Part shown: in pieces, positions 417-39,285 of the stretch
How the letters are laid out: each line of letters starts with the position of its first letter
Position numbering within the stretch: position 1 is the first letter of the stretch
Assembly (NCBI RefSeq): GCF_009931435.1
Contig: NZ_CP043414.1
Reading direction: 5' to 3' (one strand)
Length of the DNA stretch: 64,000 nt
Source: Escherichia coli
GTDB taxonomy: Bacteria; Pseudomonadota; Gammaproteobacteria; Enterobacterales; Enterobacteriaceae
Position numbers and translations under genes: made by a program
Notes under the pieces: generated by a model
Database searches by the model: none
The model's input: the letters and a program-made list of their open reading frames with translations, nothing else
What the model was told of the DNA's origin: nothing

Positions 417-962
<546 letters not shown>

Positions 963-972
963 TTAATTATTA

Positions 973-2268
973 TCACAGATACGGCGACCAGGCAGGGAAT
1001 TTGACCTGTCCATCAGTTGCCGGAAGACGCGCTTTGAAACGCCCATCTGTAGAAACCAAATTCAGCACGGATCCCATCCCCTGAGAAGAGCTGTAGATTA
1101 CCATAGTGCCGTTAGGTGCCAGACTTGGCGTTTCATCCAGGAACGTGGACGACAGAACTTGTACGCCTCCCGTTGCCAGATCTTGTTTGGCAATGTGCTG
1201 CTGCCCACCATTGGAGCTGACCATTACCATAAATTTACCGTCGCTGCTGACATCCGCATCCTGGTTCTGCGAACCTTCCCAGGTAATACGTTGTGGCGCA
1301 CCGCCGTTGATATTCACTTTATAAACCTGCGGACGACCGGCCTGGTCAGAAGTAAATGCCAGGTTCTGGCTGTCCGGGAACCAGGTCGGTTCGGTATTGT
1401 TACTGCGACCATCAGTCACCTGGCGGATCTGACCAGAAGCCAAATCCATTACGTACAGGTTCAGGCTACCGGTTTTCGACAAGGCGAATGCCAGTTTGCT
1501 GCCGTCTGGCGAGAATGCTGGTGCACCGTTGTGACGCGGGAATGAAGCCACCTGACGTACAGCACCATTTGCCAGCGTTTGAATAACCAGCGCTGAACGA
1601 CCGCTCTCGAAAGTCACATAGGCCAGTTTAGAACCATCCGGTGACCATGCCGGAGACATCAGCGGCTGCGGAGAACGGTGAACGACAAACTGGTTGTAAC
1701 CGTCATAGTCAGATACGCGCAGTTCATACGGGAACTGACCGCCATTGGTCTGAACAACGTAGGCAATACGGGTACGGAACGCACCTTTAATGCCGGTCAG
1801 TTTTTCAAACACTTCATCACTGGCGGTATGACCAGCATAACGCAGCCACTGCTTGTTCACTTTGTACGAGTTCTGAGCAAGTACAGTACCCGGTGCGCCG
1901 CCAGTGTCAACCAGCTGATAAGCAACATTGTAAGAGCCGTCCGGATTCGGAGTGACCTGGCCGACAACCACAGCGTCAATGCCCAGCGCAGACCATGCTG
2001 CTGGTTGTACTTCCTGTGCACTACCCGGCTGCTGTGGCAGACGAGCGCGATCTAATGGATTAAATTTACCGCTGTTACGCAAGTCAGCAGCAACGATGCC
2101 GCCAATATCTTCAGGTGCTGCACCAGGACCCGCCCACTGGAAAGGAACAACGCCAATAGGACGACCGGAATCTACACCGCTGTCGATCACAATGCGGACT
2201 TCAGCATGCAGAACTGATGCCCACAGTATGAGAAAACCAAATGCTACTCGTAATGCCTGCTTCATCAT
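973..2268 (-). CDS. tolB: Tol-Pal system beta-propeller protein TolB
   Basis: 431-aa [34 protein letters not shown]...; start may be the second Met (2265); upstream of pal. Confidence 0.95.
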
Positions 2269-2397: not shown

Positions 2398-3663
2398 TTA
2401 CGGTTTGAAGTCCAATGGCGCGTTTTTGAACACTTCATATACTGCCTGGCTTGGTGGTTTCGGGATCTTCGCAAGTTTAGCTGCTGCCAACGCAGCCTGA
2501 CAAAGTGCGGGATCGCCACCTTCAGGTTTGATATCCAGTAACATACCATCGGGTGCCAGTTTTATGCGCAGCGTACAGGTCTTGCCTGCATAGGACGATG
2601 CGTCATAGAACTTACTTTCGATAGCAGATTTAATCTGCCCGGCATAGTTATTGATATCGGCCCCTGATGCGCCATTGTTTTTAGTATTACCACTCCCGGC
2701 AGGCGAAGCATTGTTCCCTTTCGCCCCTCCCCCCGTTTTCGGTGCATTCTTACCAGAGCTTAGCTCACCGAAAATATCATCTGCCTCTGCGGCCGCTTTT
2801 GCTGCAGCGGCTTTTTCAGCTGCAGCTTTTGCCGCTGCCGCTTTTTTGTCTGCGGCGGCTTTTTCTGCCGCTGCTTTCTTATCAGCTGCTGCCTTTTCAG
2901 CAGCCGCTTTTTCTGCTGCTTTTTTGTCGGCTGCAGCTTTCTCTGCCGCTGCTTTCTTATCAGCTGCTGCCTTTTCAGCAGCCGCTTTCTTCTCAGCTTC
3001 TGCCTTGGTTTTTTCAGCAGCTTCAGTTGCCGCTTTTTTTCTTGCTTCAGCTGCAGCTGCTTCTGCCGCTTCCGCTTTCTTCTTCAGCGCCGCAGCGGCT
3101 GCTTCGGCTTTTTTCTGCGCTTCGGCTGCGGCTTTGGCTGCTTCTGCTTCTGCTTTTTTCTTCGCGTCTGCAGCCGCTTTCTTCGCTGCTTCTTCCGCAG
3201 CTTTTGCATCCGCTTCAGCCTTCGCTTTAGCATCTGCAGCCGCTTTCGCTGCCGCCTCTTCCGCTTGCTTCTGCTTTAACTCGGCCTGTTTTGCGGCTTC
3301 TTCAGCCTGCTTTTTCTGCTCCTGAGCCGCTAACCGCTCTTTCTCAAGTTGCTTCAGGCGTTCCTGTTCAGCCGCTTGTTTCTCACGCAGTTCTTCCGCA
3401 GCCTGCTGTTCCTTCATCTTGCGCTGCTCATCAGAACGCTTCGCGCTTGATTCCTGGCTTTGCATGCGTTTGTACTGCTCAACTACCGCACCTGAATCAA
3501 CCATTACAGCGTCGATGGACGAACCACCGCCGCCTCCGGCTGAAGCTTCTATATTCTCATCGAACGAACTCCAGATCAGCGCCGCAAATAAGATGACATG
3601 CAGCACTGCTGAAATAATTATCGCCCGCTTGAGCTTGTCGTTTTGTTCGGTTGCCTTTGACAC
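2398..3663 (-). CDS. tolA: Tol-Pal system protein TolA
   Basis: 421-aa ORF with N-terminal TM helix, long Ala/Lys/Glu-rich helical domain (KAAAEKAAADKK repeats) and C-terminal domain; between tolR and tolB. Confidence 0.95.
   Translation of the reverse strand: MSKATEQNDKLKRAIIISAVLHVILFAALIWSSFDENIEASAGGGGGSSIDAVMVDSGAVVEQYKRMQSQESSAKRSDEQRKMKEQQAAEELREKQAAEQERLKQLEKERLAAQEQKKQAEEAAKQAELKQKQAEEAAAKAAADAKAKAEADAKAAEEAAKKAAADAKKKAEAEAAKAAAEAQKKAEAAAAALKKKAEAAEAAAAEARKKAATEAAEKTKAEAEKKAAAEKAAADKKAAAEKAAADKKAAEKAAAEKAAADKKAAAEKAAADKKAAAAKAAAEKAAAAKAAAEADDIFGELSSGKNAPKTGGGAKGNNASPAGSGNTKNNGASGADINNYAGQIKSAIESKFYDASSYAGKTCTLRIKLAPDGMLLDIKPEGGDPALCQAALAAAKLAKIPKPPSQAVYEVFKNAPLDFKP
2760..3300. repeat. 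In-frame tandem repeats encoding the TolA domain II Ala/Lys/Glu-rich helix
   Basis: Reiterated gctgcagc / gcggcttt / ttctgc units visible in the DNA; protein shows repeated AAEKAAADKKAA. Confidence 0.8.
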
Positions 3664-3727: not shown

Positions 3728-4156
3728 TTAGATAGGCTGCGTCATTAAACCAACCGATTTCACACCCGCACTATGTAACAAGTTCAGTGCTTTAATTATT
3801 TCATCGTAAGGCACATCTTTTGCGCCACCGATCAGAAAGACCGTTTTCGGGTTGGCCTTGAAACGGCTGGACACTTCCGCCACCACCTGCTCTGGTGGTA
3901 AACGCTCCAGGCGATCTTTCTCAACCACCACGGTGTACTGACCAATACCAGACACTTCAACAATCACTGGCGGATTATCGTTACTGCTCACCGCCTGTGA
4001 TTCAGTAGCGTCTGGCAGATCGACCTCCACGCTCTGGGTGATGATGGGCGCTGTCGCCATAAAGATCAGCAACAGCACCAGCAGTACGTCCAGCAACGGT
4101 ACAATGTTGATTTCGGACTTGAGATCGCGACGACCTCGTCCACGCGCTCTGGCCAT
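3728..4156 (-). CDS. tolR: Tol-Pal system protein TolR
   Basis: 142-aa ExbD/TolR-family ORF (MARARGRGRRDLKSEINIVPLLDVLLVLLLIF...). Confidence 0.95.
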   Translation of the reverse strand: MARARGRGRRDLKSEINIVPLLDVLLVLLLIFMATAPIITQSVEVDLPDATESQAVSSNDNPPVIVEVSGIGQYTVVVEKDRLERLPPEQVVAEVSSRFKANPKTVFLIGGAKDVPYDEIIKALNLLHSAGVKSVGLMTQPI

Positions 4157-4159
4157 GGC

Positions 4160-5253
<1,094 letters not shown>

Positions 5254-39002: not shown

Positions 39003-39285
39003 TTCCTGCATTTCTTTTGTAGGCCGGATAACGCATTCACGCTGCATCCGGCGCTGTTTGCCTGATGCGACGCTTGCGCGTCTTATCAGGCCTACGATTC
39101 CTGCATTTCTTTTGTAGGCCGGATAACGCATTCACGCCGCATCCGGCCCTGGTTGCCTGATGCGACGCTTGCGCGTCTTATCAAGCCTACGATTTCTGCA
39201 TTTCTTTTGTAGGCCGGATAAGGCGTTCACGCCGCATCCGGCACTGGTTGCCTGATGCGACGCTTGTGCGTCTTATCAGGCCTGG
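39003..39285. repeat. Cluster of three tandem BIME/REP units in the sdhB-sucA intergenic region
   Basis: Three near-identical ~95-bp units, each with two REP palindromes (taggccggataa...gcatccggc and gcctgatgcgacgcttgcgcgtcttatcaggcctac). Confidence 0.85.

Follow-up and report, generated by a model that had tools for sequence, protein, structure and literature searches.

Length alleles of the in-frame tandem repeat in domain II of Escherichia coli tolA and their breakpoint homologies

The repetitive segment of tolA in the analysed window (a stretch of 64,000 nucleotides from E. coli contig NZ_CP043414.1, assembly GCF_009931435.1) is, with an estimated probability of about 0.93, an in-frame variable-number tandem repeat in the C-terminal part of domain II, the units of which recombine or slip to alter the length of TolA. 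The length polymorphism of E. coli tolA is already known and was experimentally characterized in 2012 by Zhou, Michiels and Aertsen (PLoS One 7:e47766; PMC3477136), who placed “13 imperfect repeats of 15 or 18 bp” in the C-terminal portion of this domain. What is added here is an independent confirmation on a genome collection ~20-fold larger, sampled twice at even spacing, in which the modal frequency and the range both recur. The unit anatomy, the polymorphism, its confinement to domain II and the occurrence of substitution-free indels come from the present analysis, whereas the RecA dependence, the contraction rate and the phenotypes are taken from the literature. TolA length affects the reach of Tol-Pal across the periplasm, and in experiments it alters the tolerance of bile salts and the sensitivity to filamentous phage; the repeat is thus a true source of diversity in envelope phenotype, and it also serves as a typing marker.

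The open reading frame carrying the repeat matched over its full length two curated TolA equivalog models of NCBIfam above their cut-offs, PRK09510 (NF007065; E 2.3e-166, 553.6 bits, cut-off 213) and TIGR02794 (E 3.3e-91, 306.2 bits, cut-off 59.45), identifying the product as TolA, the force transducer of the Tol-Pal system. The window gene shared 98.5% DNA identity with K-12 tolA in an alignment free of gaps. The locus is the canonical ybgC-tolQ-tolR-tolA-tolB-pal(-cpoB) operon and, from a matching annotated genome, the genes lying beyond tolQ are ybgC, ybgE, cydX, cydB and cydA. The features of the operon and the domains of TolA are as follows (coordinates are those of the window).

378-516: CpoB/ybgF leader RNA
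417..962, minus strand: Pal (equivalog match)
973..2268, minus strand: TolB (equivalog match)
2398..3663, minus strand: tolA coding sequence, 421 aa with a GTG start, as long as tolA of E. coli K-12 (ORF list and profile matches)
2407..2691, minus strand: domain III of TolA, globular and C-terminal, residues 325-419 (Pfam PF06519, E 2e-38)
2734..3522 (approximate), minus strand: domain II, Ala/Lys/Glu-rich, extended helical and periplasm-spanning, ~residues 48-310 (from composition and PMC7391070, PMC10666116)
3562..3624 (approximate), minus strand: domain I, N-terminal membrane anchor, ~residues 14-34, with the S18-H22-L29-S33 “SHLS” motor-coupling motif
3728..4156, minus strand: TolR (equivalog match)
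4160..4852, minus strand: TolQ (equivalog match)

The four residues S18, H22, L29 and S33 were visible in the N-terminal helix of the translation (IIISAVLHVILFAALIWSS), and this S-H-L-S motif of the transmembrane helix couples TolA to the TolQR motor (PMC10666116). Through the long helix of domain II, which crosses the periplasm, force from this inner-membrane motor reaches TolB-Pal at the outer membrane. Two open reading frames on the plus strand over the repeat (2651..3325, 224 aa; 2742..3230, 162 aa) were rejected as artefacts, their poly-Ala/Ser/Phe/Leu products being encoded antisense to the GCN and AAR codons of tolA.

Domain II carries KAAAEKAAADKKAAAEKAAADKKAAEKAAAEKAAADKK in the translation, and the reiterated motif given in the preliminary description (KAAAEKAAADKK) was literally present; the interval proposed there, 2760-3300, correctly encloses the well-conserved tract together with degenerate units upstream of it. 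The tandem-repeat search that it had suggested as a check returned nested arrays across 2787..3006 and 3099..3276. In the first of these stretches Tandem Repeats Finder gave periods of 15, 33, 45 and 78, the top-scoring array (2835..2993) having a period of 78, 2.0 copies, 92% matches and a score of 276; in the second the arrays were weaker, with a period of 12/24, and those at 3200..3250 covered an ADAKAKAE site. When read in register, the tract consisted of units of the form K1-2 A2-4 E/D/A, each of 15 or 18 bp and thus a multiple of 3, so that the tract constitutes an in-frame tandem repeat with the following parts.

2785..2988, minus strand: canonical tract TR1-TR13, 204 bp, residues 226-293, made of 13 in-frame units of 15 or 18 bp; the main length-variable segment
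2942..2988, minus strand: copy 1 of a 47-bp exact direct repeat (TR1-TR3), gene nt 676-722
2864..2910, minus strand: copy 2 of the 47-bp exact direct repeat (TR6-TR8), 78 bp (five units) from copy 1
2989..3039, minus strand: degenerate units just upstream of TR1 (KKAATEAAEKTKAEAEK), residues 209-225; deleted or replaced by copies of TR3-4-5 in the ST131, O157:H7 and EC67 alleles
3200..3234, minus strand: second, minor variable site, ADAKAKAE, ~residues 143-155; a 24-bp tandem duplication in some strains (1290-bp alleles)

The possibility that the repeat merely mirrors a composition rich in Ala, Lys and Glu was excluded by resampling synonymous codons 300 times on the fixed TolA protein. The longest exact in-frame direct repeat of the window gene, 47 bp at an offset of 78 bp, was reached in 0 of the 300 resamplings (mean 17.0 bp, SD 3.2, maximum 35 bp). 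Since 47 bp exceeds every resampling, the DNA repeat is genuine beyond composition, its units having been kept similar by duplication or conversion. The two 26-codon half-arrays shared 20 identical codons, compared with 10.1 expected from codon usage.

The length of tolA was then surveyed across the species. By megablast, the gene was present in 5,425 of 5,426 complete E. coli genomes, and 60 rows evenly spaced down the ranking were taken from each of two runs, one with the window allele and one with the K-12 allele as query, giving 118 usable rows out of 120. One of the two excluded rows was a match cut by the start of its record and the other the garbled pseudogene of NIPH17_0036. The modal length, 1266 bp, was found in 81 of the 118 rows (69%), while the other 37 (31%) were distributed over 12 further lengths between 1185 and 1311 bp, frequencies that rest on 120 sampled rows of 5,425 genomes in a set, RefSeq complete genomes, over-representing clinical clones. 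These comprised alleles of 1311 bp (11 rows), 1299 bp (5), 1251 bp (5) and 1290 bp (3), followed by the rarer 1185, 1215, 1233, 1263 and 1275 bp (2 rows each) and 1218, 1221 and 1296 bp (1 each). About one third of the sample obtained with the K-12 query was 100% identical to K-12 tolA. The encoded proteins ranged from 394 to 436 aa. The preliminary description had held that expansion and contraction in frame would change TolA length between strains, and had proposed a comparison of tolA length and repeat number across strains; the 13 lengths among the 118 sampled rows bear this out, repeat number being far from identical. All 118 usable alleles had a length divisible by 3. As all natural length changes were in frame, the locus does not behave as a strict phase-variable contingency locus with on/off switching.

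These figures agree with earlier PCR sizing of 234 isolates (Zhou, Vanoirbeek, Aertsen and Michiels 2012 Res Microbiol 163:316, as cited in PMC3477136), where 8-16 units were found and the 13-unit allele made up 66%, against 69% here; the lengths of 1185-1311 bp, from -81 to +45 bp, are equivalent to the published range, and the region is the same locus. This agreement in both range and modal frequency also bears on the idea that errors of sequencing or assembly in a GC-rich low-complexity repeat account for the differing tolA lengths. In NIPH17_0036 the gene is annotated as a frameshifted pseudogene and its domain II is garbled, resembling an unpolished consensus, which shows that the region can be mis-assembled. 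However, the 118 other sampled alleles were all in frame, the same lengths recurred in unrelated assemblies (1311 bp in 11 rows, 1299 and 1251 bp in 5 each) and the reference genome of O157:H7 Sakai itself has a 1185-bp allele. An artefactual origin of the length alleles is therefore extremely improbable and effectively refuted. The NIPH17_0036 sequence (1142 bp), the sole sampled allele out of frame, was considered as a natural tolA null and rejected as a probable assembly error, its middle ~555 bp being a garbled, indel-ridden domain II in which neither a simple deletion nor an inversion was found when these were looked for.

To place the length changes within the gene, 16 tolA alleles were retrieved, the first 13 of which were compared in a protein alignment, and unit maps were drawn by assigning each unit to the closest K-12 unit. 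Every indel in the 16 alleles fell within window positions ~2830..3240, in domain II, and comprised whole repeat units. In the alignment of 13 proteins, gaps were confined to residues ~142-150 and ~218-300, domains I and III being identical, and the protein sequence of domain III was identical across all alleles compared. The unit-level assignments relative to K-12, unless stated otherwise, were as follows.

NCTC9113: fusion of TR3 and TR4, -15 bp
MB06171: loss of TR2-3, -33 bp
O111:H8: loss of TR5-7, -45 bp
SW071619: loss of TR9-11, -48 bp
F247: additional TR4-5, +30 bp
PEC1013: two additional units, +33 bp
Ecol_743: additional TR3-4-5, +45 bp
ST131 and O157:H7 types: a copy of TR3-4-5 in place of the degenerate upstream units
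EC67: architecture derived from the ST131-type architecture by loss of five units, 78 bp
GPEC1356: ADAKAKAE duplicated, 24 bp (+8 aa), window ~3200-3234, gene nt 430, with a 35-bp exact flanking repeat

TR12-13 were kept in 16 of the 16 alleles. This conservation has an experimental counterpart, as TR12-13, the CpoB/YbgF-binding region, were never involved in deletions in the laboratory, and some of the deletions obtained there reached the degenerate units upstream of TR1 (PMC3477136); extensions upstream beyond TR1 and the retention of TR12-13 are thus common to that work and to the present survey. EC67 and O157:H7 Sakai have one unit architecture on backgrounds 16 substitutions apart, which suggests that this architecture is either old or has arisen more than once.

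Several alleles differed by repeat units only. Within O157:H7, the alleles of 7386WT (1275 bp), Z887 (1215 bp) and Sakai (1185 bp) showed 0 substitutions among them and were separated only by unit indels of 30 and 60 bp. K-12 tolA likewise differed from the alleles of NCTC9113 (-15 bp), O111:H8 (-45 bp) and F247 (+30 bp) with 0 substitutions each, and Ecol_743 from ST131 by a 48-bp indel and 0 substitutions. In all, seven allele pairs showed an indel with 0 substitutions over at least 1185 bp, as expected of a hypermutable locus, which means that units are gained or lost faster than point substitutions accumulate. These single-indel pairs, including the three alleles within O157:H7, point to recent de novo events and, together with the spontaneous contractions seen in clonal cultures (PMC3477136), make it very unlikely that the length alleles are old and passed from lineage to lineage through homologous recombination of the tol region instead of forming repeatedly de novo. 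Such spread would nevertheless agree with the architecture common to EC67 and Sakai despite their 16 substitutions, and with the 1311-bp allele, which is common (~9% of rows) and near-identical across hosts and countries. Spread of old alleles and de novo change are not mutually exclusive.

The exact homologies at the breakpoints fell into two classes, of 7-12 bp and of 35-68 bp. The short class comprised the -15, -33, -45 and -48 bp events relative to K-12 (7-11 bp) and the 48-bp indel between Ecol_743 and ST131 (12 bp), and also included the +45 bp event relative to K-12. The remaining events made up the long class; among them, an exact flanking repeat of 38-68 bp was found for the -60 and -30 bp events within O157:H7 and for the -78 bp step from the ST131 type to EC67. 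From the breakpoints, the short class looks like replication slippage and the long class like homologous unequal exchange; where the longer allele holds a perfect tandem duplication and only two alleles are compared, the direction of change (duplication or deletion) is ambiguous, and so therefore is the length of homology actually used, the mechanism class behind each natural allele being inferred. Because the units of 15 and 18 bp are alike at the DNA level, misaligned pairing between them deletes or duplicates whole units, through RecA-dependent unequal recombination if the identity extends over tens of bp and through replication slippage if it is limited to 7-12 bp. Each unit has a length divisible by 3 and specifies one and the same helical motif, so that the products stay in frame and functional, with a shorter or longer TolA.

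Efficient RecA recombination reportedly requires ~25 bp of homology in most cases, a figure ascribed to Shen and Huang in 1986. The flanking homologies of the four simplest events relative to K-12 and of the Ecol_743/ST131 indel are below this requirement, and 15% of the wild-type contraction rate persists in a recA mutant (PMC3477136), both of which would fit an origin of most natural alleles by RecA-independent slippage at short homologies, the RecA route being minor outside the laboratory reporter. That this holds for most natural alleles is nonetheless somewhat doubtful, given the 38-68 bp repeats flanking the O157:H7 and EC67 events and the reporter data, where contractions dropped by 85% in recA and rose 3.3-fold in uvrD, with no change in mutS (PMC3477136). 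The preliminary description had named slippage or recombination; both are compatible with the breakpoints, and for recombination there is an experimental demonstration (PMC3477136). Contractions were scored in that study with a stop-codon reporter (frequency 6.9e-5) and the predominant event was a deletion of 5 units (78 bp), the same register as the best array found here by Tandem Repeats Finder; expansions were not recovered among 150 deoxycholate-resistant colonies (PMC3477136).

The window allele has the modal 13-unit length and differs from K-12 tolA at 19 sites, 18 of them synonymous and one giving A219T. No identical copy was found among the 5,425 complete genomes, the best match having 99.7% identity. 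A cluster of synonymous differences from K-12 at gene nt 696, 714 and 717 makes TR2-3 identical to TR7-8, erasing three of the four differences that separate these unit pairs in K-12, so that the perfect repeat in the 78-bp register extends over 47 bp, compared with 20 bp in K-12. Because TR2-3 equal TR7-8 there and most of the other alleles mapped keep the K-12 state at TR2-3, the window allele seems to have been homogenized by short intragenic gene conversion. RecA-dependent exchange rises steeply past ~25 bp of homology, and the mutability of tolA could for this reason be allele-dependent, the rare allele with the 47-bp repeat losing or gaining a 5-unit block several-fold more often than that of K-12, for which the published rate was determined. 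Such a difference is unlikely; if true, concerted evolution within the array would tune the instability of TolA length. Nothing essential differs between the present results and those of Zhou et al., and the 47-bp repeat, which was not found in PMC3477136, is an only mildly new point.

Deletion of domain II abolishes TolA function, and both its structure and its length tune force transduction (PMC10666116; PMC7391070). The repeat number itself has graded effects, as chromosomal variants with 2-39 units were all at least partly functional, and more units gave a higher deoxycholate tolerance, whereas NaCl at pH 5 was tolerated best by those with 6-13 units (PMC3477136). The natural span of 394-436 aa (42 residues) would correspond to ~6 nm if domain II formed one continuous helix (0.15 nm per residue), a modest fraction of its length that fits the functionality of all natural alleles and leaves room for graded phenotypes. 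It is tentatively possible that the length variation is real but near-neutral, domain II acting as a tolerant spacer where changes in unit number drift, or are weakly purged, around an optimum of 13 units, rather than as an adaptive, bet-hedging “contingency locus” by which stress tolerance is adjusted. The natural lengths lie within a narrow range (-27 to +15 aa), 13 units are kept in most genomes (81/118), SDS and osmotic tolerance are restored by every variant from 2 to 39 units (PMC3477136), and TonB domain II or longer chimeras partly replace TolA domain II (PMC10666116). Neutrality is harder to reconcile with plating efficiencies on deoxycholate spanning four orders of magnitude and with the plating of phage fd, which was down to 28-43% in every variant without 13 units (PMC3477136), or with the short architecture that EC67 and Sakai have on two backgrounds. 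That 13 units predominate is in itself a sign of selection on length. The 69% share of this allele, together with the third or so of the K-12-query sample that is identical to K-12 tolA, makes the locus far less variable in nature than the contraction frequency of 6.9e-5 suggests and thus implies stabilizing selection.

The description of a thirteen-fold motif in TolA reportedly goes back to Levengood et al. in 1991. It is also found in current reviews (PMC7391070; PMC10666116). Repeats of this kind have been used for typing in other enterobacteria, namely SENTR1/SE-10 in tolA of Salmonella Enteritidis, with a 45-bp unit (PMC2430564), and locus 53 in tolA of Klebsiella pneumoniae, with an 11-bp unit as scored (PMC3948817), both of them VNTR markers in MLVA. 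These loci resemble the one in E. coli in being in-frame tandem repeats of the Ala/Lys-rich domain II with a copy number varying between isolates, but they belong to other species and follow other unit definitions, the likeness resting on published descriptions. Lahiri et al. (Microbiology, 2011) are said to have tied a difference in tolA repeats between Salmonella Typhi and Typhimurium to detergent resistance; this would be a further case, in a genus other than Escherichia, of the repeat number of TolA domain II differing between close relatives with an effect on bile or detergent tolerance.

Classical contingency loci, such as those of Neisseria and Haemophilus, carry simple-sequence repeats of 1-8 bp and are switched on and off by frameshift. 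They have in common with tolA a repeat-mediated, raised and reversible mutation rate at a gene of the surface or envelope. In contrast, the units of tolA measure 15 or 18 bp and never shift the reading frame, so that length is graded and the gene is never off; unlike short simple-sequence tracts, tolA contractions were unaffected by mutS (PMC3477136). A closer functional parallel is domain II of TonB, with its Glu-Pro/Lys-Pro repeats, which in a paralogous force transducer forms a repetitive linker across the periplasm; its length matters for reach, and it is partly interchangeable with TolA domain II (PMC10666116). The two domains share no sequence similarity, that of TonB forming a polyproline II helix and that of TolA an alpha helix.

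In the tolA repeat array (TR1-TR13, the in-frame 15/18-bp units of domain II), three clustered synonymous differences from the K-12 allele at window positions 2942-2968 make TR2-TR3 match TR7-8. They mark what appears to be a gene-conversion tract within tolA, 22 bp or longer, of which the nearest allele, that of strain MFDS1022581, has just part. In E. coli NIPH17_0036 the annotation lists tolA as a pseudogene with a frameshift (positions 401-1542 of the locus sequence taken from NZ_AP024561.1). Both ends of this gene match K-12 cleanly, but in approximately 555 bp of domain II the repeat is garbled and full of indels, in a way that is not explained by a simple deletion or by an inversion. 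The garbling most likely stems from an assembly that was left unpolished, and it shows that the tolA repeat is open to mis-assembly. A search of the E. coli genome collection with tolA (window 2398-3663) further gave matches in two plasmid records and, in a few genomes, at two places, with no match in one of the 5,426 genomes searched; these odd placements and the absence could reflect mis-assigned replicons, duplications or true loss.

Other features in and around tolA and further along the window were as follows:

2651-3325, + strand: long ORF of 224 aa composed of Ala/Ser/Phe/Leu runs
2742-3230, + strand: long ORF of 162 aa composed of Ala/Ser/Phe/Leu runs
378-516, - strand: CpoB/ybgF intercistronic RNA thermometer (Rfam RF02782, 142 bits, E 2e-28)
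39,022-39,282, + strand: three tandem naRNA4/CssrE matches (RF02564; 72, 66 and 87 bits)
~9,350-32,500: accessory gene block between cydA and sucD

The two ORFs are the GCN/AAR repeat codons of tolA read through in antisense, and almost certainly neither is a gene. The RF02782 match overlaps the end of pal and the spacer downstream of it, as expected for the pal-cpoB junction. The RF02564 matches are REP/BIME-type elements; collinearity with strain 2020CK-00188 places them between sdhB and sucA.

The block is accessory and most E. coli lack it. Its first set of genes encodes methylaspartate mutase (glmS/glmL/glmE), methylaspartate ammonia-lyase, an AtuA-family protein, a dicarboxylate symporter, class I fumarate hydratase, cobO and a LysR regulator. 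After these come a histidine-utilisation cluster (a HAL-family ammonia-lyase, hutG, hutI, HutD, a cytosine-type permease and hutU) and RtcB; block coordinates beyond 29,000 were inferred from collinearity with 2020CK-00188. Window 5000-29000 was covered to at least 80% in only 143 of the 5,426 complete genomes. Among the matches listed, 2020CK-00188 was the best, at 99.3% identity, and the majority of the remainder reached just 96.7-96.9%.
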